Shown: positions 2,838-34,831 of the stretch, piece by piece
How positions within the stretch are numbered: position 1 is the stretch's first letter
How the letters are laid out: each line of letters starts with the position of its first letter
From: Rotaria socialis
Taxonomy: Eukaryota
Assembly (NCBI GenBank): GCA_905331295.1
Contig: CAJNYD010000118.1
Coordinates: forward strand, 1-34,831
Reading direction: 5' to 3'
DNA length: 34,831 nt
Notes under the pieces: model-generated
Told to the model about the DNA's origin: nothing
The model's database searches: none
What the model saw: only the letters and a program-made list of their open reading frames with translations
Program-made: the position numbers and the translations under genes

Positions 2838-4143
2838 ATGGGTAATTCCGTAGCTAATGCAACCAAACCAGAAACATCATCGGTTGTTAATAACACTGCA
2901 AAACTAACTTCCTTCGTTTATAAAGACCTAGTCTTGCATGTACAAGTCATTCAACAACAAACGATTGAAGTAGCGAAATATATTGATGATCAATGCAAAA
3001 CCGATGAAAAAATACGACAAAAATTGAAATCACGTTCATTCATATTTGTTGATCCTTATGGAAACCAAACAACGCATAAGTATTTAGATCATGAAATGAT
3101 GAATACAATATTTAGCAAGTACAAAAAAAATTATGTTCCGAAATATTTACAAAAATGGATAAAACTTGGAAAAATCAATGAAACCGGTATTTCACCATTG
3201 AATGAAAATGAACTGAAATCGTCAGTATCCGAACATGATGATGGTTATCGATTTGTTACATGTGGCGAAGTCAACATATCCATTATATATCGAGAAGACG
3301 TACGACCTCAAGCATTATTACTACCAGTTTTACTGACAGACAACTTAGCAAAGATTAAAAAACAAATCCAGGAACTTACAAAACTGAAAACTATGCAATT
3401 AAAATCGCTGCTTTTAAAAGAAAATTGTCCAATGATTACAGCATCCTGGAATGAAGGTAAAACACTCAACTCTAATGTCACTGTCTTGTCATCTAAATTG
3501 TATGAAAACAATTGTATCATTATGGTTAAACTATTGGAAGAGGTAAATTAATACTTTTGTTTAATTTCACATTTAGAAATCTGTTGCTATTTGATAGAGC
3601 GCGTCTACAGAATCCAGTTCCAATTTTGATATCTTTGCAAAAACTCTTACTGGAAAGACGATCACGATTGAAGTGAATTCTTCCATGGATATATCTACTG
3701 TCAAACAACTGATTCAAGATCAAGATGGTATTCCTCCAGATCAGCAACGTTTAATATTTGCTGGAAGTCAACTAGAAGACGAGCGAACTCTCTCACACTA
3801 TAAGATCCAAAAGGAAAGTACGCTTCACTTAGTATTACGTTTGCGCGGTGGTATGTTTCATTTTACAAGTGGGCGACATAATTTCGATGAATTACCATCC
3901 GCACAAGCTGAAGCAATAAGAAACGTTCTTGTATTCAAATTTGAGCATATTGATCATTTTGAAAATTTGGCACTGCCTGATCTACAAAATTCCGTTTTAC
4001 GATCACAAGCCTTACTCTTAGAATTACCCTCTGAAATTAAACACTATTCGGCGCCCCACGATGTTCCAAATTTTAAAAATATGATATTGCCAAATGTTTC
4101 TGATGATGAAGATGAAGATAGTTATGATTTTCTCGATGATTAA
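2838..4143 (+). CDS. Array copy A1: ubiquitin-domain protein, exons 2838-3542 and 3598-4143 (~416 aa), internal LRLRGG, ends TAA TGA
   Basis: A 55-nt GT-AG intron (3543-3597) joins the two ORFs in frame. Exon 2 encodes [14 protein letters not shown]...[42 protein letters not shown] (ubiquitin fold), then ~96 aa ending in an acidic tail. A probable 5'UTR intron runs 2275-2819; its donor GAAG|GTAATT is also present in copy A2. Confidence 0.85.
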
Positions 4144-4385
4144 TGACAATCCTCACTCCAACAACAACTACAAGTATTTCAATTCTTACAACATTATGTA
4201 CTCAAGCAATTACTTATTCAAGAAGAAAAAATGAGAGTTAGTCAACCAACACAACAATTATTAGCAAGCATTGAAGATCGAAAAGACATTGATTAGATGG
4301 ATATCATCGCTGATTTACAAACTGATTTAATCAAGACATTCCTAGGTGAAGATACGACACACCATGAAATTGAATATAGTTTAAG
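4144..4385 (+). pseudogene. Remnant post-stop extension (N-terminal helical part of the deiodinase-like moiety); the rest is deleted
   Basis: The frame stays open after TAA TGA ([33 protein letters not shown]...) until TGG>TAG at the conserved DWMD motif. It is homologous to 7730-7968 and ends at the same splice donor. Confidence 0.75.
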
Positions 4386-4386
4386 G

Positions 4387-4454
4387 TAGGGGTGGGCCAT
4401 TAACAGTAATTAATGTGATGCATTAAGTTCCGCTAAAAAAATGGTCCACCCCTA
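4387..4454. mobile_element. 68-bp hairpin with TAGGGG...CCCCTA termini (minimal TIR element) replacing the deiodinase exons
   Basis: TAGGGGTGGGCCATT...AATGGTCCACCCCTA. It sits between the exon donor and the 3' half of the SECIS. No TSD. Confidence 0.6.
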
Positions 4455-6417
4455 CTGCAGTCGGAAAATTGATGTATCTAATTCTTTTCGGTATCACAAT
4501 GATATAATTCATTGTTTCGAAAGAAGTTTCATTCAGGTTTTGTATTTTGAAAGCTGGATTAATTAGTTTTACTTTTTGCTTACAAAGTAGATCCGAAAAA
4601 ATTAATCACTTTGCCATAAGTTATTTTTTCGAATAATAAGGCCGAACGGTATTCGTGAGGCGTAGAAAGAAGGGATAATTTTAGATCAGATGCGATGTGA
4701 ATGAAATATTCGTACTCATATACACAATTACTTAAGCTGATTAGAGGATGATCCTTCGCTTCTGTCTTTTCGAGAAACAGGTTTATCTGTGTTCAATTTA
4801 CTCAATGGTACGTTAGTGCAATGAAGCAATGTTGAACCAAATAGAGCACGGAGTTATGAATGCTCTTAGGTTCTTGTATCGAACATGAAAGATATCTGCC
4901 CAAGTCTCTATTGATGAAAATTTGCTCATTTGGATCATGTTTTACAGAATAATCTGTTGTATTGCTAAAATATAATCGCAACATTCTCGTGCACCTGTGT
5001 TTTTGATAATGAAATTCAGGCAATTAAGCTGTTTAAAATCAATTCGACGCAGGCCTGAGAAATCGTTTAGTTGGGATTTTTGAATTGATTAAAATAAACT
5101 GAAGTTGCAAATCAGTGAAACAATATTTCTCGTCATGCAAATTTCAATATTTACTCTCTCAACTATTTCGTTACTGATTTTTCATGATTTCAATTACTTC
5201 ATTTGGCAATATATGCATTTTTTATTCAGTGATTTTGGAATCAAATCGATTTATAACTTTGTTAACACAAGTATTCCACGGAACTTGCCTTTTTGCGCCC
5301 TCAAAACATCATTGAAACTACAATGAATAATACATGTTTAATACAAAATCTTTTCCTGGTACTAAGAACAGGAAAGATATACTAGACGTTTTGTGTAACG
5401 AATCAGTTCGTGCTATAGTTTAGTCCTCGATGAAAAATAAAGGGCTTCTGCTTTTGCGTAGATCTGCTGCTGCCTGCCGTGTATATTTGCACATTTACTT
5501 GTAACGAAGTATTCATAGAGAAATCGACAAATTATTGTCGGTACAGCTTTGAGTGTAAGAGCAAGTTGAAAAGACCCCATATACGATAAAAGATAGCACG
5601 ACGGGAGAATTCTGGATGCGAAATATGGATTTTTCCAATGAAGATTCCTAATTAATGTATTTTATATGAAATCCATGAGTCACGTTGTTTAATTTACTAC
5701 ACACGCAACGATTGTAAAGAAATTGCGAAATTTTTTCTCATTTCTTTTCACATAGCGAATAGATAAATACGAAAACATTGCAACATCAATTGAAATTATG
5801 ACGACTCTATTTCTTACTTCTTTTAGAAATGGATGTACGTTGAGAATAAATATAGCACGTGGTAAAATAGTAGCACGGATTGTCGATATTCGCCCTGCAA
5901 AAGTATATAAGGCGTATTTTTCTATCACCCGGAGAAAAACACAATTTCTATTTTCTCTGTACGACTCTAATGATTCATTTATAGGCAAGAATTTATAAAA
6001 CGTTGCTTCACGCTGACTTTTTTTCATTTCTAAACGTTTCATAACAACGAATAGGTTGCGTCGATCAATGTAAGTATGTTTATCTCGCGAAAAAATAAAT
6101 CAATACGATAATCAACCAAAGCATTAAAAATTACTAATTTCAATTTTTTATGGCGCAACTTTCATGAGTCATGTAATATTTAGTGAGAATCAGCGTATTT
6201 TAGTTTTCTGATGACTTCACTAAAGACATTAGAGAACTTTGTTCCTTTACATTGCTCGTAATTTTACATCTACCTGGCAGAATAAAAGTTAGTAACACTC
6301 ACTAATTTCAACTATTGACTTCAATGAGAATAAAACAATTTTCTAAAAATAAAACAGTTTGGCATCGCAATTCATATGTTACTATCTGTGTAGTTTCAGA
6401 TAACAATTTGTTCTACC

Positions 6418-8683
6418 ATGAGTACATCAGGTCCTCCAGAGCCTAGTTCATCAGTCGCATTGACTGCAGTAACTCCTACAGTACCAACTTCATTCGTTTA
6501 TCAAGAGTTAGTACTTCATGTACAAACCATTCAACAAAAAATGATTACCATAGCCAAATTTATTGATGATCAATGCAAAACCGATGAAAAAATACGACAA
6601 AAATTGAAATCACGTTCATTCATATTTGTTGATCCTTATGGAAACCAAACAACAAATGAATATTTCGATCATGAAACCATTAGTACAATATTCAACAAGT
6701 ACAAGAAAGATTATGTTCCGAAATATTTACAAAAATGGACAAAACTTGGAAAAATCAATGAAACCGGTATTTCACCATTGAATGAAAATGAACTGAAATC
6801 GTCAGTATCCGAACATGATGATGGTTATCGATTTGTTACATGTGGCGAAGTCAACATATCCATTATATATCGAGAAGATGTAAGACCTCAATCATTATTA
6901 CTACCAGTTCTGCTGACGGACAACATAGAAAAGATTAAAAAACAAATCCAGCAACTTACAAAACTGAAAACTATAGAATTAAAATCGCTGCTTTTAAAAG
7001 AAAATTGTCCAATGATAACAGCGTCCTGGAATGAAGGTAAAACACTCAACTCTAATGACACTCTCTTGTCATCTAAATTGTATGAAAACAATTGTATCAT
7101 TATGGTTAAACTATTGGAAGAGGTAAATTAATACTTTTGTTTAATTTCACATTTAGAAATCTGTTGCTATTTGATAGAGTGCTTCTACAGAATCCAGTTC
7201 CAATTTTGAGATCTTGGTAAAAACTCTTACTGGAAAGACGATCACTATTAAAGTGAATTCTTCCATGAATATATCTACTGTCAAACAGCTGATTCAAGAT
7301 CTAGAAGGTATTCCTCCAGATCAGCAACGTATAGTATTCGCTGGAAAACAACTAGAAGACGAGCGAACTCTCTGTGATTACAACGTTCCAAAGGAGAGTA
7401 CGATGCACATAGTGTTACGTTTACGCGGTGGTATGTTTCATTTTACAAGTGGTCGACACAATTTCGATGAATTGCCATCCGCACAAGCCGCAGCAATAAG
7501 AAATGTCCTTGTTTTTGAATTTGAGCAAACTGATAATCTCGACAACTTGCCTCCGGCTGACCTACAAAATTCCGTTTTACAAGGGCACGCTTTACTAATG
7601 GAACTGCTGTCTGAAATTAAAAACTATTCGGTGCCTCACGATGTTCCACATTTGAAAAACATTATACTATCAGAGGCTGTTGATGACGAAGATGAAGACG
7701 GTGATGAGGAAACTTCTAATGATCAGTGACAATTACCAATCCAAAAACAACTACGAGTATTTCAATTATTTGAACATGATGTACTCAAACAATTACTTAT
7801 TCAAGAAGAACAAATGAGACTCAGTCAACAAACACAACAATTATTAGCAAGCATTGAAGATCGAAAAGACATTGATTGGATGGATATCATCGCTGATTTA
7901 CAAACTGATGTAATCAAGACATTTCTCGGAGAAGATGCAACACATGATGAAATTCAATATGGTCTAAGGTAACTATTCGACTTCATTGTAATTCTAAATC
8001 TTTGTTTTTGTTTCGTTGTAGTATATTACGAAGTGCTCATCAGATATATGCAGATGACAAGGAATTTCATAATTTATCTCTTTATGTTCGACATAATCGT
8101 GCAAAAAGAGGAAATCTTCGTGTTGGTGATCCAGCTATTGACATCGACTTACTAAATATGAATGGTGAATCTGTTTCATTATTGTCTCATTGTAATCCCA
8201 ATCGACCATTATTGATTCTTGCTGGTTCATATACTTGACCACCATTTCGTGGTCTTGTACCACAACTCAATCAGCTGATGGATTCCTATCGAGATCGTGT
8301 TGATATGATCACTGTTTACATCGAAGAAGCTCATGCAGTTGATGAATGGTAAATTATTTTAGGAAGTTTACTTTTTCTATATCTGTATAATGTTTTGTAG
8401 GCCAATCGGTAGTCGAATATGTTATGTTCAACCCAAATGTGATGTTGATCGAATTCAGATTGCAAATGATTTCATTAAAGCAACTGAATATCGTATTCCA
8501 CTATTGATTGATCCAGTATCAAAAACTAATCCATTCAGTGAAGTTTATTGTCCATGGCCGATTCGATTTTATGTGATTGATCATATGAAAAAGTTGAGTC
8601 ATATAGCTGAACCAATTGAAGGCTCCTTTCCATTGGAATTGATTCGAAATGCATTAGGTGATGCCATTCAACAATGTCAATAA
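6418..8683 (+). CDS. Array copy B1 (intact): ubiquitin-domain / deiodinase-like selenoprotein fusion. Exons 6418-7122, 7178-7968, 8022-8348, 8401-8683; in-frame TGA at 7727-7729 and 8236-8238 (Sec). 418 aa if stopped at the first TGA, 701 aa fully recoded
   Basis: Three GT-AG introns (55, 53, 52 nt) keep one frame. The ubiquitin domain ends LRLRGG (7427-7432). Deiodinase-family motifs are [14 protein letters not shown] and [12 protein letters not shown] (vertebrate DIO: RPLVLNFGSCTUPPF, YIEEAHxSDGW), plus [13 protein letters not shown] downstream. Probable 5'UTR intron 6070-6399. Confidence 0.8.
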
Positions 8684-8725
8684 AGTGTTTTTGTTGTTCT
8701 CAGAAATAATGATGATAAAATATTT

Positions 8726-8822
8726 TTGTGATATTGAAAATTTTAAAATGATATTTTTTGTTGAAAGCGTTTTAATGATGCAGACGGAAAATTGATGTAT
8801 GTAAGTGTTTTCAGTATCACAA
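8726..8822 (+). promoter_or_regulatory. Eukaryotic type II SECIS element
   Basis: Folded by hand. Helix I: TTGTGATATTGAAAA (8726-8740) / TTTTCAGTATCACAA (8808-8822). Core: ATGAT (8748-8752) / TGAT (8793-8796). Helix II: ATTTTTTGTT / GACGGAAAAT. Unpaired AAA at 8764-8766. Apical mini-helix GCGTT / GATGC. Confidence 0.85.
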
Positions 8823-11016
8823 TGATATAATTCATTATTTCCAGTGCAGTTTTTATTTTATGTTTTATGTTTTTAAATTGAGATTAATAAAATTCACTTG
8901 ATATATATATTCAAGGGTAATATTTACCTTCTGTTGAATTTCTTTTTATGATATCTGACAGGTTAAAAATTGTTGTACCTCGGCTTTTATTGTAATAATT
9001 TCTTTTTCAACAGCAAGGGCAGTGAAGAATAAGAACTTAAATGAATATTTTGGCAACATAGAAATGGACTTTTTCCAATTAAAATTTATCTGGTAAACGT
9101 CTCTCTAACATTGAACCATATCCATGAAACCTTTCTTTTAGAGATCTCTTGAATAAAACAAGTTCGGTATCCGAACCTGGATAGAATTAAAATATGAAAG
9201 ACAGTTACGCATTGACGATGTTTATCTTCTAGTGAGACCGTGACATTGTATATTTTTGTGGGACATACTAGCTTATTGTTCTTGTACTTATTTCTGGTCA
9301 ATTAGTATGACGAAAGCTCTCGATATAGCATTGTGGTATGTATCCTGATATCCATAAGTATCTATCAGCTAGCACTTAGATCGCGCCTTGGAAAATATAT
9401 TGTTTCTCTTATTGAAATTCTGTTCGAACTCCTTTTAACTATTGTTGTATTTGTTATGATTTGTAAAAGCGTTTTTTGTGAATTAGTTCGTTGATTATTG
9501 ATAATTATGTTAGAGTAAAACCATTTTGTAATGTTTTCGATATAATGACTGAATCGAGTTGTTATTGAAATTTAAACCAGACATTATCGGGACTACAACA
9601 AATAATATAGATTCAATAAGAAAAATTCCTGATGCTAAAATATCACCTGACATGTGCCAACTAAGAAAAAGAAACATTATAATCAAGAATAGTTTCATAA
9701 AACTACGGATATTATTCAGTTTCTCTTTTTGATAACATACAGACCATTTGCCTGAAACCATGCTACTCTTAGATGAAAACTCAGCTTACTATGTTTCAAT
9801 GAAAAAAATAAAAGCTTTTTGTCTCTATGACCACGCGAGAGTAGCAACAATAGGGTGTCCATACGTGAAACGATACGATTCTCCTCTTCGCACCCACACT
9901 TGGTATCGCTTCCTTATAGCAAATATTTTGAAGCAAGTCGTTTGAGTTTACTTTCCATATGTTCATCGTGGTTGATTTTCGTCCTTACATCGAAATACTC
10001 TTAGTATGGGTGCCCACTTATTGAAGCCATAGTTCAATTTTTATTCGTCTTATATGGTAAAAAATCTCTTTTTAATGATGAGTGGAAGCTGTTCCGTTTA
10101 CTACTAAATGAGTGTGCCATGTTGTTCGTTTTTAAATGGCACACAAGAGTTATAAGAAAAATACTACGATATTTATTCATTTTCTCTTCTGAAAAATAAA
10201 GGCTCCAAAATATAATTCTAGTAGCAGTATAGAATTTCATGTGTGAATTGGTTTCTGAAAAACTAAGATGCGAGTGGTGAAAATGTAAGTATACAGTTTT
10301 TACAATCAGTTTTCGAGAGTCCCCATTTTTGGAGATCACGTCATTTAATCTTTATGACGCATTGTCTTATCGGTAAAAGAAAAAATCCAACCTTGTCTCC
10401 ACTTAAAAAAATCCTTATGCAAAGTATATGAGAGCTGTTGTTACTTATTTTCTTTCATTCGTGCGCGACTCATAGTAACAAGTGAGAACATATTTTCCAT
10501 AGATAGAGAAAGAATGCGTTCGACAAATAGCTTGTGAATTGCCCACCATTATCACGAACTCATTCCCAACAACTTTGAAGGTAATTATTGACTAGTTTAG
10601 TCTTCAATTAGATTTTTACCAATAACAATGCGTTTAGCATGCTTTTGAGACCTAATCATTGCAATTCGTTATAAAAGGTGATTCATTCGTATTGACGAGT
10701 TTATGACACTACTTCTACTATCATTAAGATAAAAAGGAATATGTTTGTCCATAAAAGAAAATGCAGTTTGAATTTTCAATGGGTCATTGGAATAAATTTT
10801 CTCATTTTAAAAACTGAAATTTTTTGAAAAAACAACATCTTACTGTCCCTATAGATGAAACAAACCTCAAGTTTCCGAATTTATTTTGGAGAAAAAGATG
10901 ACGGTTAATAATCTTATGTAGCGACAATAACTCATAACATGTGTTAAAAGACTTTAAAAACAAAATTCATCTAGTTCAAATTCTATATTTACTTTCAGAT
11001 ACCCACTGGTTCAAAG

Positions 11017-12561
11017 ATGGACAATTCTGTCAGTGATGCAACCACATCAAAAGCAACATCGACGGCTGTTATTTCTAAATTGTCAACTGCCTTTGTTTAT
11101 GAAGATTTAGTCTTTCATGCACACGCCATTCGACAACAAAATATTGAAATTGCGACACTTATTGATAATAAATATAAAAATGACAAGAAAAAACGTAAAG
11201 AATTGAAATCTCGTTCATTAACATTTGTCGATCCCTATGGAAATCCAACAGCTAATGCATATTTCGATCATGAAACCATCAATACAATACATAGCAAGTA
11301 TAAGAAAGATTATGTTCCGAAATATTTACAAAAATGGATAAAACTTGGAAAAATGAATCAAAACGGTATTTCACCATTTAATGAAAATGAACTCAAATCG
11401 TCTGTATCCGAACATACTGATGGTTTTCGATTTATTACCTACGGCGAAGTCAACATATCGATTATATATTCTGAAAATAGACGACCTCATTCATTTATAC
11501 TGCCAGTTCTTCTGACTGAGAATATAGAAACCTTACAAGACAAATACAAAAACTTCAAAAATTAAACAATATCAAATTGAAATCACTAATTTTAAATGCA
11601 GATACTCAAATAAGTACAGCATGTTGGAATGAAGGTCAAAGACTCAAATCAGATGGCACTATCTTCTCATATAAATTATATGAAGACACTTGTATCATCA
11701 TGGTAAAAGCATTGGAAGAGGTAAATTAATAATTTCGTCTACTATTTCAGTAAAAAATAACTTTTATTTTTATAGAGCGCTTTCGGAGAAGCCTTGTTGA
11801 ATTATCAACTTTTTGTGAAAAATCTCACTGGAAAGACAATCATTATTGAAGTGAATCCTTCCATGGATATATCTACTGCCAAACAACTGATTCAAGATAT
11901 GGAAGGTATTCCTTCAGATCAACAACGTTTAATATTTGCGAGTAAAAAATTAGAAGACGAGCGAACTCTCTCCGATTACAACATCCAAAACGGGAGTATG
12001 TTTCACATAGTATTATGTTTACGCGGTGGTATGTATCATTTTACAAGTGGTCGACACGATTTTGATAAAATACCAAGCGAATCAGCCGAAGCAATAAGAA
12101 ATGTTCTTGTATTCGAATTTGAGCATACTGATCATCTTGAACATTTGGCACCGGTTGATGTACAAAATTCTGTTTTACGATCACAAGCCTTACTCTCAGA
12201 ACTACTCTCTAAAATTAAAAACTATTCCGTGTCAAGCGATGTTCCGAATTTGAAAAATATTATATTGCCAAATCTTATTGATAATGAAGATAAAGATAGT
12301 GATGATTTGTTCGATGATAAATGACAATCCTCGCTCCAAAAACAACTACGAGTATTTCAACTATTACAACATGATGTACTCAAACAATTACTTATTCAAG
12401 AAGAAGAAATGAGACAGTCAAGAAACACAACATTTATTAGCTACTATTGAAGATCGAAAAGACATTGATTGAATGGATATCATAGCTGATATACAAACTG
12501 ACTTAATCAAGACATTCCTAGGTGAAGATGCAACACACGATGAAATTCAATATGGTTTAAA
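11017..12561 (+). pseudogene. Array copy A2: frameshifted ubiquitin-domain gene, truncated before the deiodinase core
   Basis: Exon 1 (11017-11720) is 704 nt versus 705 nt in the other copies, from a 1-nt deletion near 11537; the homologous sequence resumes in another frame. Intron 11721-11775. Ubl ends LCLRGG. TGA CAA TCC at 12322. A 2-nt deletion lies near 12415. Homology stops at the donor at 12562. Confidence 0.75.
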
Positions 12562-12564
12562 GTA

Positions 12565-12896
12565 ATGATCAACTCGATTGGGGTAGCTTGTGCCACTCTC
12601 GGCAAAGATGTTTATTAGGCTACTTCAAGCATACAGAGTGTAACGACAAAACTAGAGACTGTCGCCTATGTCCGTCGACATGATGGCGTATTGTGTCATC
12701 TGACATCTCTAGTTGTCTCTCAACTTCATACATAACACACGTATATATAGGAGAGAGATAAAAGAGAGACAAGAAAGAGCTATATAAGAACAATGGAAAG
12801 AGAACAGAAAGAGAAGGAAGGAGAATCATCGGAGCGCGCCATCAATATCGGCACACCCTCCCACTCAGATCAGACGCTCTCCTGAGCGTCTTTACA
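12565..12896 (-). mobile_element. Possible LTR fragment
   Basis: On the minus strand it starts TGTAAAGAC, contains TATATA and a CT-rich tract, and has AATAAA (12611-12616). An inverted TGTAACGAC lies at 12639. No TSD found. Confidence 0.3.
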
Positions 12897-13648: not shown

Positions 13649-15999
13649 CCCAAGACACTCGATCCTGCCTCCGGATCCTGCCGGAACCCATCGGAACCAG
13701 CACCGGATCACTCCAGAAGCCGGCACCTTTCCCACTCAAATCTGGCAGGATCCGACAGGGATTTCGCCGGAATCTCTGCTCCCGGAATCCGGGCCGGAAA
13801 TCAAAGGAAAATGATCCGGTCGTTTCCTGCCGGATAACACAGCCGAACATTGTCGAAACCGATCGACGCCGACTACCGGATGATGCCGGGTTCACAAGGG
13901 TTTCACCACATATTTCGCCGGATTCCATCAGATTCCCGTGACAAGGACCACATAAAGAATCTCTCATAAAAGCGTTCTTCAATCACAAGATGGATCAACT
14001 GTACTCTTCAAGAAAACGCACAGCACCCCCCACAGCGAACACTATGAGAAAACTTGTAACCCAGAACGAACAACATCTGACTCACCTATATACACCCTTT
14101 GAATGATCCAGAACCATCCTACAATACATCGTATTCATTAAACTAATTATAAACTCGTTTACTGCGTCATCTTCTTGCATTTCCGTTTTTGGAAACATCG
14201 CTCCTAACATCATTTTGAACCGATCGAAATAATTAACAATTCCTGGAAAATCCTTCTAAATATCATTCCGGAACGTCACCACCATTTTTTTCATCAATAA
14301 ATATCATTCTAAACACATTTAAAGAGTCGTCCTTTCGCACACTAATTCAGCGAAAATCGCTCCAAACATCATTTTGCACCCATCGAAATCGTTGATAATT
14401 CACGGAAATTGGATCTGAATGAAACTCCAGGCCGCTCATCACTAACTTTTTCATGCAGTATTAACATTTTAAAAGTAAAAAACCAGGGATCTTATTCATC
14501 AAAACTTTTAAAAAAATTACACCACGCATCATTTTCCATCAACCCAAATATGGCATCAGTCGTAATGAATCGTTCAGATAATCATTCTCGATGGTTCCAA
14601 CTTACCTTTTCTTCATTAAACACGATTCTAAGCATCTTTCATTACAGAACTAACCGCACTTTCCTTCGACGAAAATCACTCCACAGCTTAACCTCGACTT
14701 ATCGAAAAATTCACTAAGATACGGAGATTCAGTCAGACAACGATTCTAGGTGTTTCGAACTTATCTTTTCTTCATGAAACAGAATTCTAAGCATCTTTCA
14801 TTACGGTTGCAGCCATAGTTTCGTTCGACGAAAATCACTCCACAGCTGAACGTGGACTTATCGAAAAATTCACTAGGATATTGAGAATCGTTCAGATAAT
14901 CATTCTCGATGGTTCCAACTTACCTTTTCTTCATTAAGCACGATTCTAAGCATCTTTCATTACGGAACTAACCGCACTTTCCTTCGACGAAAATCACTCC
15001 ACAGCTTAACCTGAACTTGTCGAAAAATTGACTAAGACATTGAGAATCGTTGAGATGAGCATTCTCGATGGTCCGAGCATAGCCTTTTTGCATGGAACAG
15101 GATTTTGAGCGACGCTCGAAAGCGGTTTGATGGGATGGTGAATTTTAATATTATGTGTAAGCAACATTGGAGCGTCCGCAAAAGCGTTTGTTGGTGATTT
15201 GAAATGATGCTTTTGGCGTTGTCAGACGGAGGAAGCACGTGTGTAACATGTTTTAAATTTTATCGAATTGCATAGAGGAAGAAGAGTCTGTGTACATGGG
15301 AAGCTTTGCTTGCCCGGAGTAGTCATTAATGGTTGTGGATTTGGGATTTGACGAGGAGTGGGGCGTAGAATTAAGTTATACTGACTGGAGTTATGATAAA
15401 CGAGTTGAGTGATATTCGTTCGGGTGGATAACTTCGTGTAGGATTAGTAAATACTTATTCATGTTGCTCATGTAGACTGATGGTTTGTATGTAAGCTATT
15501 GGATGAACGATAATTTTTGATTCGTGCTTTTCATCGGTTTTGTGAGCTGTTAACTACGGGTCGGAATGGATTATAGGATCTTCTTTTAGCATCTGGTAAT
15601 TAGTTGTAGATATTGTCTGTCAGATCTGTGCTTTTGTAAGTTGCATAACCCGGTGAGTAGAACCGTTCGGTTCTGATATGATCCGATTGGTTCCGGTGAG
15701 ACTGATTAAGCTGCATCTACCATGAAATCTAGCGTCATGCGCCACGGCGGCTTCCGGTAAAGTTTCGTCACCGGATATTGTGGGATCACGTCGTATACGG
15801 CCAAATCGTATTATATGACCTGATATTTTCCGGCAATGTAAATCTGGCCGGTTCTCGGAGAATCTGGCCACCAGATTTCATAAGAAAACAAAGAAAATCG
15901 TCGGAATTCACCAGAAATTAGCCAAACGAATCCGGTCACCATGTGACATCGGAATTATAACCCGTCCGACAAGAACCGACTGATCGATAATGACCTGGG
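13649..15999. mobile_element. Non-autonomous DNA transposon with CCC...GGG termini (CMC/EnSpm-like, tentative)
   Basis: Imperfect TIRs CCCAAGACACTCGATC / GATCGATAATGACCTGGG, flanked by ATA on both sides. Both ends have GC- and CCGG-rich subterminal regions. No transposase ORF. Confidence 0.6.
14568..15085. repeat. 159-bp tandem repeat, ~3.3 copies, inside the transposon
   Basis: Units start at ~14568, 14727, 14886 and 15045. They share ATTCTAAGCATCTTTCATTAC and TTCGACGAAAATCACTCCACAGCT. Units 1 and 3 are nearly identical. Confidence 0.85.
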
Positions 16000-21812: not shown

Positions 21813-22514
21813 GTACATGGTCAATTCATATGCAATCAATGTACTGTTTTTAATACGGCAGAAAGAGATGATTGGTTGAAGCATGTACGAAAATATCATT
21901 ACTCAGCATTCGTCCGTTTAGTCCGGGAGAGAGAAGGTTGTCCAACGGCTCTTAATGATCAACCACTTGCCAATATATCAGACAATGAAGTAATATGAAT
22001 GCTTAAAACATTTTAATAAAAAAAGTGCTTGGATATTTTTTGTATCGTTTAGGATGATGATGATGATGATGATGAAACGGCTAATATTGGTACACCACGT
22101 TTTGAATTTGATGCTTTAACAGCTAGCACAGATTCACATCGTCTTCCTTCTCAACGACGATTTCAACCAAGTCGTCCAGCATCGGGTGCAATTCCACGTG
22201 ATTTTATTCCTCAACGTCAGTTTCAACCAAATTGTCCACCACCTAATATAAATCAATATTGTTTTATTCCTCAACAACAATTTCAACCAAATCATGCGAC
22301 AACAGGTACAATTCCACGTGATTTTATTTCTCAACAATTGGAACAAAATCATCATGCAACAGCAAGCACATATCCAGGTGATTTTATTTCTCAACAACAA
22401 TTGCAGTTTGGTAATACAACAGCTGATCCACTTCAACAATCTCAAGTTCGTGATAAGACTATCAAGAAAGTTGGGAAATGTTTTCTCCCTGCGTTTATGA
22501 GACTTTCTGAATAA
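21813..22514 (+). pseudogene. Gene fragment: C2H2-type zinc-finger exon plus acidic / Q-P-rich repeat exon
   Basis: HGQFICNQCTVFNTAERDDWLKHVRKYH (C-x2-C-x13-H-x4-H). A GT-AG intron (21990-22052) joins it in frame to DDDDDDDE...(DFIPQxQFQPN)n. The 5' structure is unclear. Confidence 0.5.
22140..22420 (+). repeat. 60-bp (20-codon) coding tandem repeat, ~4.5 copies
   Basis: TTTTATT(C/T)CTCAAC recurs at about 22202, 22262, 22322 and 22382. The frame stays open throughout. Confidence 0.8.
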
Positions 22515-24378: not shown

Positions 24379-26289
24379 GTGCCTATCCTCTATTGACACC
24401 CACGCCCTCAAGGTTAATTCCATTGCGCATATCATACTTAACTTTATTTTCCTCATATGAGCATTTTCCTCGAAAGAATTTCTTGTTCCTCATTCAAGTT
24501 TTTCATTACACAAAAAGGTTAAAGTTTATGATGTATTACAATATAACACAATAACTCCCAGTCTCTCCACGACTATTGCAAATACCTCTTCAACCTTTGG
24601 GTATGGGTGTGACAAGAAGAACTATATCCATACCCACACCCACACCCTATCTGCCTTTACAATCGATATTAAGATGCAGCATTAATAAGTTGTAATGAAT
24701 CTGAACCACAATTTTTATGTTTCGTTTGAGATACAACAATACCAGTTTCATTTAGACACTTGGAATGTGACTTAAAAAAAACTACTATTTCTTTTTGTCG
24801 ATTTTACACCCTAGTCATGATATTTTTCAAACGAGTGTTAAGAAAGATGATACTATTTGGATTGATGATATTTTCCAACTTAGCAAATTTAACATTGACA
24901 TGTGTTCACTTACGGCACACATAATGAAAGATTCAAAAAGAAATTAATATCGAGAATAGGACATGTAGGTGGTGGTTCATCTTTTACATCTTGATAGAAG
25001 AAAGTAGCGATGAACTATTTCAAATATCAATATATCACATACTCGATATTCTCTATTCTTAGTCAATGATGTGCTTATTTGTAAACATTCATCTTTTTAT
25101 TCTACTAGCAAACTATGTTGCATTTTATGTCTTGTTCTTATCTAACTTTTAATACTTTAATAAGCTAGTAATTCAATAATAGATTATTTAATCCAACTGA
25201 GATAATTTTAGTTTCTGTTCGAGAGAGAAAATATTAAAATCTAAAACAAAATTCTATGATCAAAATCTTGATGCAAAGTTATAGTGCTCTGTCAAATAAT
25301 CGAGACTAAAATCTGGTAATATTGTTTTATAAATATGATTATGATCCACTTAAATTTAATTATGATTTTCAAACATTATTGATTGAATGATAACTGGGAG
25401 GAGGCATTCTGCTGGATGAAATGGAATTGTTTAAGGTGAAATCATTTTTTCATTCGATAGAATCTATCGAGACCAAAGATAGTCTACAATCGTATTATAT
25501 TGTTGAATTTTTTCTTTTCTAGTTATACTCATTATGTCGGCTTTGTTTTTATATGAAGATTCATCTTTAAAATAATCGAATGGCTAAGTTTCAGCTAAAA
25601 CCTTTTGTACTCAAACATTTTTTCACTTTGCTAAAAGTCACAGGATATCAGCATCGGTGTGCGACAGAGATGTGACTGATTCAGTTAAAAAAACACGAAC
25701 CAATTTCATCATTGTTGTGTAGATACTCATAAAAGGTTCACACCCACAACGGAACAAAAATAAAAAGCATTTTATTGACTACAGATACAAAGCAATATGT
25801 GAATCTAGTTACATTTATTAATTTTCCATTTATTTCTTTTTTAGTATGCTGCGGTAAACGTTCACTTGCAAATGGCAAGGCTTCAATATCACCATGCGAC
25901 GTTTCTGATCTTCGTTGCCGTGATTGGCTTCTTTTACAGTCAGCTTGTGAAAAATCTATTTCTGTTCTTCATTAAGTTTTATTAAAAACTATTGGTAAGA
26001 TTTTTCTATTTAGTAAATAATTTTATATATTGCATTTTTGGAATTATCTGAATCAATTAATATTCATAATACTTGCGGTAATGAATTAAAATTAATTGAA
26101 AGTAAGACAGTCATCGAAGCGGCTGAAATATTATTTCATGCTATTATTATCGACAAAAACATTAATTAATATAATCTATAAATTTTTATCATATTTATGA
26201 TATTCAAAAAAACAAACAAACAAAGACGGATGCATTTTCATAACGAAATCATATTTTAAAGATCTCATGTTGTTTTGTTCATATTTTAG

Positions 26290-26951: not shown

Positions 26952-27504
26952 CTATCGATACTGATGGTTTAGCTTGTCAAAGTCAAGATCAGCGAATATG
27001 GAATGGTGCTCGTTCAACTAAAGGAGTAAAAGGCAAAGGTAAATTGTTATTATTTACTTTGGTTTTCATATTTATTGTGTTATATGTTAGGTAGATATTA
27101 TTTTGAAATAACTCAAACTGATCCCAATGGTATTGCACGTGTTGGTTGGTCAGTACCAATAGCAATAATCGATCTTGGAACTGATAATCAAGGTTTTGTT
27201 TATGGTGGTACAGGAAAAAAGTCATTTGCAAAACAATTTGATGGTTATGATGAAACATTTGGTGTTAATGACACTATCGGAAGTTTCATTGATCTTGACC
27301 GAATGAAAATTCGATTTTTTAAAAATGCTTCGTTTAAATATCATCTTTTCATATAGAAATAATCTTCGATGTTTAGGCAAAGATCTTGGCCATGCATTTG
27401 ATCTTCCTCGTCCATTACAAAAGCATACATTTTTTGCACATGTTTGTTTGAAATCTACAGATGTTCGAGTATATTTAGGTGCAGAACCATTTAAAGGAAC
27501 ACCA
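26952..27504 (+). pseudogene. DDX1: DEAD-box helicase DDX1 SPRY-domain fragment (3 exons)
   Basis: AIDTDGLACQSQDQRIWNGARSTKGVKGK|GRYYFE...RVGWS...DLGTDNQGFVYGGTGKKSFAKQFDGYDETF...FFKN|GKDLGHAF matches the DDX1 SPRY insertion. The donor at ~27328 is CT instead of GT. No helicase core. Confidence 0.8.
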
Positions 27505-30625: not shown

Positions 30626-32082
30626 GTTCTGCACCTAAATTGACACGAACATCTGTAGATTTCAAACAAACATGTGCAAAAAATGTATGCTTTTGTAATG
30701 GACGAGGAAGATCAAATGCATGGCCAAGATCTTTGCCTAAACATCGAAGATTATTTCTATATGAAAAGATGATATTTAAACGAAGCATTTTTAAAAAATC
30801 GAATTTTCANTTGTTTGTTTTTTTGAATATCATAAATATGATAAAAATTTATAGATTATATTAATTAATGTTTTTGTCGATAATAATAGCATGAAATAAT
30901 ATTTCAGCCGCTTCGATGACTGTCTTACTTTCAATTAATTTTAATTCATTACCGCAAGTATTATGAATATTAATTGATTCAGATAATTCCAAAAATGCAA
31001 TATATAAAATTATTTACTAAATAGAAAAATCTTACCAATAGTTTTTAATAAAACTTAATGAAGAACAGAAATAGATTTTTCACAAGCTGACTGTAAAAGA
31101 AGCCAATCACGGCAACGAAGATCAGAAACGTCGCATGGTGATATTGAAGCCTTGCCATTTGCAAGTGAACGTTTACCGCAGCATACTAAAAAAGAAATAA
31201 ATGGAAAATTAATAAATGTAACTAGATTCACATATTGCTTTGTATCTGTAGTCAATAAAATGCTTTTTATTTTTGTTCCGTTGTGGGTGTGAACCTTTTA
31301 TGAGTATCTACACAACAATGATGAAATTGGTTCGTGTTTTTTTAACTGAATCAGTCACATCTCTGTCGCACACCGATGCTGATATCCTGTGACTTTTAGC
31401 AAAGTGAAAAAATGTTTGAGTACAAAAGGTTTTAGCTGAAACTTAGCCATTCGATTATTTTAAAGATGAATCTTCATATAAAAACAAAGCCGACATAATG
31501 AGTATAACTAGAAAAGAAAAAATTCAACAATATAATACGATTGTAGACTATCTTTGGTCTCGATAGATTCTATCGAATGAAAAAATGATTTCACCTTAAA
31601 CAATTCCATTTCATCCAGCAGAATGCCTCCTCCCAGTTATCATTCAATCAATAATGTTTGAAAATCATAATTAAATTTAAGTGGATCATAATCATATTTA
31701 TAAAACAATATTACCAGATTTTAGTCTCGATTATTTGACAGAGCACTATAACTTTGCATCAAGATTTTGATCATAGAATTTTGTTTTAGATTTTAATATT
31801 TTGTCTCTCGAACAGAAACTAAAATTATCTCAGTTGGATTAAATAATCTATTATTGAATTACTAACTTATTAAAGTATTAAAAGTTAGATAAGAACAAGA
31901 CATAAAATGCAACATAGTTTGCTAGTAGAATAAAAAGATGAATGTTTACAAATAAACACATCATTGACTAAGAATAGAGAATATCGACTATGTGATATAT
32001 TGATATTCGAAATAGTTCATCGCTACTTTCTTCTATCAAGATGTAAAAGATGAACCACCACCTACATGTCCTATTCTCGATA

Positions 32083-32568
32083 CACAGGAACAGAACTGCT
32101 ACAAAATATACTTAGATTTCGATTTCAAAATACAAAACATCTTGAACGTTTTCCCATGATTCAGTTACAAAATGCTATTTCAGAAGGGCATGCTTTGTTC
32201 TCTCAATTATTTTCCGAAGCTCAAAACTATAGAGTATCAAGCGATGTTACAAATTTAAAAAATATTATATTGCCAAATGTTACAGATGATCAAGATGAAG
32301 ATAGTGATGATTTTTCCGATGATGAATGACAATTACCAATCCAAAAACGACTACGAGTATTTCAATTATTACAACATGATATACTCAAACAATTACTTAT
32401 TCAAGAAGAACAAATGAGACTCAGTCAAGAAACACAACATTTATTAGCAAGCATTGAAGATCGAAAAGACATTGATTGGATGGATATCATCGGTGATTTA
32501 CAAACTGATTTAATCAAGACATTTCTCGGAGAAGATGCAGCACATGACGAAATTCAATATGGTTTAAG
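32083..32568 (+). pseudogene. 5'- and 3'-truncated array copy (post-ubiquitin linker, TGA CAA TTA, helical extension)
   Basis: ELLQNILRFRFQNTKHLERF...DDFSDDE* is homologous to the post-GG domain. The frame stays open after TGA (32327-32329) to the donor at 32569. The 5' end abuts the palindrome end. Confidence 0.8.
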
Positions 32569-32569
32569 G

Positions 32570-32636
32570 TAGGGGTGGGTCGTTAACATTAACTAATGTC
32601 ATTAATTAAGTTGGGTTAAAAAGTGGCCCACCCCTA
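32570..32636. mobile_element. Second copy of the TAGGGG...CCCCTA hairpin at the same deletion junction
   Basis: TAGGGGTGGGTCGTT...AGTGGCCCACCCCTA, followed by the SECIS 3' half remnant as at 4455. Confidence 0.6.
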
Positions 32637-34625: not shown

Positions 34626-34831
34626 ATGAGTACATCAGGTCCTCCAGGGGATAGTTCATCAGTGGCATTGACTGCCGTAACTCCTACGATGCCAACTTCA
34701 TTCGTCTATAAAGAGTTAGTACTTCATGTACAAACCATTCAACAAAAAATGATTACCATAGCCAAATTTATTGATGATCAATGCAAAACCGATGAAAAAA
34801 TACGACAAAAATTGAAATCACGTTCATTCAT
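34626..34831 (+). CDS. Array copy B2, 5' part (runs off the window)
   Basis: ATG AGT ACA TCA GGT CCT CCA... is highly similar to 6418 onward. The upstream 32637-34625 matches 4455-6417. Confidence 0.8.
   Translation, partial: MSTSGPPGDSSSVALTAVTPTMPTSFVYKELVLHVQTIQQKMITIAKFIDDQCKTDEKIRQKLKSRSF

Follow-up and report, generated by a model that had tools for sequence, protein, structure and literature searches.

The locus examined here raises the question of what is made from a gene in which a ubiquitin domain ending in LRLRGG lies in the interior of the reading frame, followed by an in-frame stop and, beyond it, a deiodinase-like sequence. An earlier note on this DNA had proposed that cleavage behind the internal LRLRGG would free a tandem ubiquitin-like modifier resembling ISG15 or FAT10, the tag of a lineage-specific conjugation system co-produced with a redox enzyme. 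We analysed the same 34,831 nt of contig CAJNYD010000118.1 from Rotaria socialis (hereafter the window), which is AT-rich eukaryotic sequence with short GT..AG introns, together with homologues of the gene. The reading that we prefer, and to which we give an even chance, is that the gene encodes a ubiquitin-fusion precursor of a selenoenzyme, gated by readthrough of a first stop, completed by selenocysteine (Sec) at a second UGA and cut after Gly320.

The gene family and its intact copy

The window contains three long copies of the gene, 80-89% identical in DNA, together with a 3' remnant of a fourth and the beginning of a fifth, all on the forward strand. Only copy 2 (6418-8683) is intact throughout. 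Copy 1 (2838..4388) is intact as far as a TAA-TGA pair (4141-4146), and its downstream part, in which an in-frame stop is present, is truncated after its first exon. Copy 3 (11017..12565), whose ubiquitin domain ends in LCLRGG, is frameshifted both in exon 1 and within its deiodinase-like part. Copy 4 (32099..32570) is the 3' remnant, with the junction GAA TGA CAA TTA, and the window end cuts off all but the start of copy 5 (34626..34831). Sequences at 1-647 and 4456-4563 resemble copy 2 in its 3' UTR (from 8779-8888 onward), which points to a further copy upstream of the window and to a deletion in copy 1 that would have taken away most of the enzyme together with the 5' half of the selenocysteine insertion (SECIS) element. 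A 1,272-nt inverted repeat, 99.6% identical between its arms (24948-26219 and 30811-32082) and with inner inverted arms at 27304-27487 and 30626-30809, ends on its right side just before the copy 4 remnant, as if a fold-back or TIR element had broken that copy, an assembly artefact being the alternative. Tandem repeats occupy 14567-15110 (159-nt period) and 22120-22395 (60-nt period).

Searches with exon 1 returned 27 and 62 matches, of which all named ones are proteins of bdelloid rotifers (Rotaria, Adineta, and Didymodactylos), among them UniRef B3G4H1_ADIVA, labelled 'Ubiquitin-like protein'. The family forms tandem arrays (L021, L023, L024, and L031), with at least five paralogues in one 96-kb contig, where the parts covered hold a single paralogue with the enzyme, behind TAG CAA TTA. 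Several Rotaria paralogues (P0024, P0025, P0028, P0029, and P0120) carry an extra internal duplicate of the ubiquitin domain; in the four that were aligned, the first ubiquitin copy is without GG and most of the motif behind it, and the last retains both.

Copy 2 consists of four exons; once it is spliced, codons 419, 571, and 702 of the frame are stops. Exon 1 (6418..7122, 235 aa) encodes a disordered N-terminus, a long helix (residues 26-62), and two predicted ubiquitin-like domains, Ubl1 (65-141) and Ubl2 (142-235). Intron 1 (7123..7177; 55 nt, GT..AG) joins 7122 to 7178, and this joint is present in contigs of three of four runs (X9, X11, and X12). The ubiquitin domain that follows (7205..7432; Pfam ubiquitin, E 8e-24) ends in LRLRGG and shares 54 of 76 residues (71%, counted by eye in an alignment) with ubiquitin; the corresponding figures for copies 1 and 3 are 59 and 52. 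Behind GG stands the motif MFHFTSGR (7433..7456), the prospective N-terminus if the protein is cut, which opens a 98-aa tail (7433..7726) of two predicted helices followed by an acidic linker. The GG ends at residue 320 and the tail measures 98 aa, or 381 aa with readthrough, so that the approximate sizes given earlier prove exact in the spliced frame.

AlphaFold2, run on alignments of 73 and 48 sequences (mean pLDDT 78.9 and 82.4), models the long helix at residues 26-62, a pair of alpha/beta domains, the ubiquitin domain and, in the tail, two helices, with the junction linker (318-326) below a pLDDT of 50 and predicted to be flexible. Degenerate beta-grasp domains had been suspected ahead of the ubiquitin domain, and the models favour this most clearly for Ubl2, a predicted beta-grasp (VIA Z 11.6, rmsd 1.5 A, 73 residues aligned). 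For Ubl1, the suggestion comes from the order of elements in the model and from a two-domain match that places residues 66-235 on di-ubiquitin 1-150 (132 aligned, rmsd 8.8). A Foldseek search, of the kind suggested along with structure prediction, of the N-terminal region (residues 1-235) gave linear di-ubiquitin and ISG15 as best matches (E 2.5e-8 to 1e-7; approximately 180 columns, TM by query approximately 0.27). Because Ubl2 matches plain ubiquitin and ISG15 equally (Z 11.6 for both), the rank of the ISG15 fold says nothing on kinship. Neither Ubl1 nor Ubl2 had a ubiquitin match in Pfam, a single-sequence search of the PDB found nothing for them, a profile search gave only weak matches at positions 142-171, and profile-profile comparison with ubiquitin returned probabilities below 1%, which is no significant sequence link. 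The N-terminal region is predicted on these models to be a tandem beta-grasp architecture, with Ubl1 and Ubl2 ahead of the ubiquitin domain, and since neither of the two ends in GG, the protein has one candidate cut site.

Two in-frame stops and a deiodinase-like extension

The tail of copy 2 ends at CAG TGA CAA TTA (7724..7735, TGA at 7727-7729), a leaky stop context of the form CAR-YYA, behind which the frame continues (7730..7968) through the helical N-terminal part of a deiodinase-like protein, with its first in-frame Met at codon 29. The thioredoxin-fold, deiodinase-like core lies in the next exon (8022..8348), in which a TGA at the catalytic position (8236-8238, GSYT*PPF) is predicted to encode Sec, and the last exon (8401..8683), seen in spliced contigs, ends in the final TAA. 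The two later introns (7969-8021 and 8349-8400) are likewise spliced in contigs, so that joints exist for all three introns of copy 2 in runs presumed to be RNA. In the 3' UTR, a poly(A) loose end falls near 8926. One contig (X9 record 17, 7232-8921) spans the first stop without any joint there; both later introns are spliced in it and it has a poly(A) loose end, all read here with the proviso that the runs are only presumed to be RNA and that an assembled contig cannot prove a single transcript. The first TGA is unspliced and unchanged in contigs of all four runs that bear on it (X9, X15, X19, and X14).

The 42 homologous loci and the window together provide 15 unique junctions with a deiodinase-like ORF directly behind the tail, and in all 15 that ORF is in frame with the stop. 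The first stop is TGA in 12 junctions, TAG in two and TAA in one; base +4 is C in every case, CAA follows in 14 of the 15, and the second codon after the stop alternates between Leu and Ser yet opens with two pyrimidines throughout. CAR-YYA is the type I readthrough signal known from TMV (UAG-CAR-YYA), which also works on UGA and UAA (PMC3542737, in part). Its strict form occurs at 10 of 15 junctions and at none of 13 family tails without a downstream ORF, a comparison between homologous junctions that is no independent-sample test, that leaves aside a frameshifted copy, a duplicate, and three tails cut off by the end of a contig, and in which two of the 13 control tails have less than 80 nt left on the contig; of 2,239 stop triplets taken as background, 5 have it. 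The five junctions that depart from the strict form, one UGA-CUA among them, include two damaged window copies. Two adenines directly upstream of the stop (PMC4615788, in part) are present at 14 of 15 junctions but also in 7 of 13 controls, and count here as a weak indication.

Most of the sequence behind the stop also behaves as coding sequence. Codons 8-29 have a pN/pS of 0.26 (10 sequences), compared with 0.31 after the Met, and contain no in-frame stops as against 27 and 12 in the other two frames. Against this, codons 1-7 stand at a pN/pS of 0.99 (10 junctions long enough). A profile search of 1.84 billion representatives gave 52 matches, and some records have a sense residue at the position of the stop: Arg in P0197 (a cluster of 3), Ser in P0199, and Trp in P0244, all known from protein records alone, with the Trp possibly reflecting the code used by the gene caller. 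In a tree with most other branches unresolved, P0197 falls within a clade of 100/100 support alongside five TGA loci. A search for conserved RNA structure behind the first stop found none (-0.62 kcal/mol, 0 two-sided changes). Since relatives carry TGA, TAG or TAA there, the first stop is not a selenocysteine site, and Sec insertion at this position was rejected as a general mechanism. The coding extension is conserved in frame behind the stop, its place on the same mRNA resting on assembled contigs, and we consider it very probable that ribosomes read through the first stop part of the time.

The second TGA stands in GSYT*PPF at all three loci that reach it. Read with Sec, the exon matches Pfam T4_deiodinase at 55.8 bits (cut-off 27) and the DIO3 structure 4tr3 at E 2.6e-9, with the TGA aligned to the catalytic residue of DIO3 and DIO2. 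A type II SECIS-like element in the 3' UTR (8748..8796) is built of AUGA, a stem of 10 bp, AAA, a mini-stem of 5 bp, and GA. The window, L025 and L021 retain every one of the 15 pairs, six of them with two-sided change, in a structure derived from the same three sequences in which the pairs were counted; slid controls pair at 44-58%. Rfam SECIS_1 matches the window at 18.4 bits and L025 at 25.3 bits (E 0.0066), and the search of L021 did not list SECIS, so that all three candidates score below the gathering score of 35. Insertion of Sec at the second UGA is highly probable in our estimate, and the readthrough product and selenoenzyme that the earlier note had expected beyond the stop are supported by the leaky context, the in-frame ORF, the deiodinase match, and the SECIS-like element. 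The enzyme is deiodinase-like by sequence likeness, and an iodothyronine activity would be assigned by likeness only.

Conservation at the Gly-Gly junction and the fate of the product

LRLRGG or LCLRGG followed by M(F/Y)HFTSGRH is found in copies 1, 2, and 3 (near 3841, 7421, and 12019), as first described, although retention across three copies of such high DNA identity, two of them damaged, is weak evidence. A broader set of homologues, found by the N-terminal query only (protein matches plus the 42 loci), was reduced from 71 rows to 56 by clustering at 90% after four internal duplicate Ubl copies had been dropped; median identity of the ubiquitin domain within it is 55%. GG, whose conservation across orthologues had been put forward as a test, is retained in 51 of the 56, RGG in 47, RLRGG in 37, and LRLRGG in 29; the motif M[YF]Hx[TS]SG[RK] follows in 52. 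Several positions at which ubiquitin contacts E1 or deubiquitinases are kept less often (R72 43/56, I44 42/56, and L8 41/54), as are ubiquitin lysines (K48 30/56, K63 23/56, and K29 2/56), compared with 51-54/56 for core positions of the domain. R74 (49/56) and R42 (50/56) come nearer to the core values, and the E1-contact surface and tail give a mixed picture. Because the counts at GG and the eight residues behind it exceed those of LRLRGG and the contact positions, the strongest selection appears to lie there. This pattern is easier to reconcile with a docking motif, or with a cut whose importance lies in the N-terminus that it creates, than with a dedicated modifier. Cleavage is not universal in the family, since five homologues are without GG and a whole clade that keeps the post-GG motif has lost LRLR; GG is absent as well from both clear sense-codon fusions (P0197 and P0199).

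The motif extends beyond rotifers. It stands behind Ubl domains in eight distinct ORFs of viral contigs, some labelled GVMAG, which have unrelated tails and of which three carry LRLRGG; the motif itself served to select these ORFs, and of the 23 loci in that search most did not encode it. The viral loci (L043-L071) and L158 combine a Ubl with GGMxHxTSGR and unrelated short or Cys-rich tails, and in two contigs several such proteins occur per contig. Prokaryote genomes encode a Ubl with the motif at 1 of 120 loci among the matches listed. The distant record P0236 has ubiquitin, GGMFH, a tail, and a deiodinase-like part in one open frame ([18 protein letters not shown], followed by the helical tail and the enzyme part), although the tail profile found no homology between its tail and that of the rotifers and another comparison was only weakly suggestive. 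The junction motif is, by its sequence distribution, not lineage-specific, contrary to what had been supposed of the system as a whole. A text search judged by title found, among the papers listed, none on the motif, which we flag here for its conservation.

Under the preferred reading, most ribosomes would end at the first stop and yield a 418-aa protein, and a minority would read through it, insert Sec at the second UGA, and yield a 701-aa protein. Host deubiquitinases would then cut either product once, after Gly320, giving the 98-aa tail or a 381-aa tail-plus-selenoenzyme with the N-terminus M-F/Y-H-x-T-S-G-R. Ubiquitin fusions are generally cut, and normally quickly, unless Pro follows GG (PMC9703124, in part); in copy 2, the residue in frame behind LRLRGG is Met. 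Given this, together with the 71% identity to ubiquitin, the flexible junction, and the frequency of GG, cleavage after GG is likely by analogy with such fusions. The 320-aa half with its three Ubl domains would most likely serve as a carrier or scaffold, which the ordinary ubiquitin E1 could incidentally charge, and a role other than that of a modifier seems to us likely.

That the first stop is the real end of the protein, with the selenoenzyme arising independently, either by reinitiation at the downstream Met or through a splice that removes the stop, is very unlikely. Six gene models (P0018, P0021, P0022, P0026, P0143, and P0185) do bypass the stop by means of a predicted intron whose end lies before HDVLK, the enzyme is missing behind 13 family tails, and distant relatives of the enzyme occur without ubiquitin. 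However, the annotated models use differing donors and the window copies are without the AG in question; an intron from the possible GT at 7701 was rejected, since this GT is changed in 4/4 runs and none has the joint. Moreover, the downstream Met is not conserved (12 of 21 records, some of them redundant, have Ile or Leu instead), coding constraint acts on most of the 28 codons that precede it, and paralogues with a sense codon at the stop exist. It is also improbable, if less so, that no cut takes place in vivo, in which case the readthrough product would persist as a 701-aa Ubl-selenoenzyme with an integral Ubl and with GG-M-Y-H-x-T-S-G-R as a docking motif covered by a partner. Conservation on both sides of GG, the decay of LRLR in the clade that retains the motif, and the constitutive fusions without GG all suit this, as does the near absence of K29, a lysine needed for degradation of uncut ubiquitin fusions (PMC9703124, in part). 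Against it, copy 2 retains LRLRGG-Met in a linker predicted to be flexible, GG is general in the family, and such fusions are normally cut quickly.

The possibility that the released helix-Ubl-Ubl-Ub-GG half is a true modifier, activated by E1 and conjugated like ISG15 or FAT10, is similarly doubtful. Three tandem beta-grasp domains are predicted, the GG would be free after the cut, RLRGG and R42 are common, and the family combines fast divergence with tandem expansion, traits that are common in defence genes. The contact residues R72, L8, and I44 and the lysine K48 are nevertheless kept less than the core, and less than the post-GG motif, which E1 never meets; ISG15 only ties plain ubiquitin in the fold search; and paralogues without GG persist. 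The lineage-specific conjugation system of the original proposal fares poorly on these counts. More doubtful still is its fullest version, in which triple decoding yields a conjugated 36-kDa triple-Ubl modifier together with a rationed selenoenzyme whose functional N-terminal motif is shared with Ubls of large viruses. An ISG15-like modifier would, if real, be a new invertebrate conjugation tag, and it is the least supported part of the proposal.

If the preferred reading of a readthrough-gated fusion precursor is correct, a virus-style leaky stop in a cellular gene sets the dose of a selenoprotein, which would also account for rotifer gene models that end early or invent introns. The double recoding is directly testable, since the family holds its own natural controls: three stop codons, sense-codon revertants, and paralogues without GG or without the enzyme.

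Comparison with known systems

Each element of this gene is known singly, and the combination was not found in our literature searches; we found no literature joining rotifers and stop codon readthrough, and selenoproteome tables of rotifers could hold the gene. In UBA52/eL40, RPS27A, FUBI-eS30, and fusions in algae (PMC6332867), a ubiquitin that ends in GG is likewise fused in frame to an unrelated C-terminal protein, and a cut after GG is expected in both cases. In the rotifer gene, in contrast, the ubiquitin domain lies inside the protein, after a helix and two predicted Ubls, its partner is gated by a stop, and the domain is 71% identical to ubiquitin and variable within the family. A term search of PMC6332867 found no mention of deiodinase, seleno- or rotifer.

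ISG15 and FAT10 (and bird OASL) share with the rotifer protein tandem beta-grasp domains and a C-terminal GG, and ISG15 is likewise made as a precursor; both modifiers are defined by their own E1 use and conjugation (PMC11354881, in part). The rotifer protein differs in having three Ubls, a helix, and an extension of 98 or 381 aa, and in that its conservation peaks behind GG. No sequence evidence for orthology with ISG15 or FAT10 emerged.

With type I (TMV) readthrough, the locus has in common the hexanucleotide context and a lack of conserved downstream RNA structure in our search, whereas here the gene is a cellular one of an animal, the family uses all three stop codons, and the extension needs a second recoding event for Sec. 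A deiodinase-like selenoprotein is known from Dictyostelium (PMC2375036, in part), and this protein and the iodothyronine deiodinases share with the rotifer enzyme the GS.T-U-PPF core, the Y.EEAH motif, and a type II SECIS. Unlike the deiodinases, the rotifer enzyme has a helical N-terminal domain common to a wide, unnamed eukaryotic family. In deiodinases, an N-terminal membrane anchor stands in place of such a helical domain. Records of the wider family (P0212-P0246) have an EExxRLS helical N-domain behind varied leaders, SAM-like in P0235 and ubiquitin in P0236, and many of them stop at GS(Y)T/S, the point after which Sec would come.
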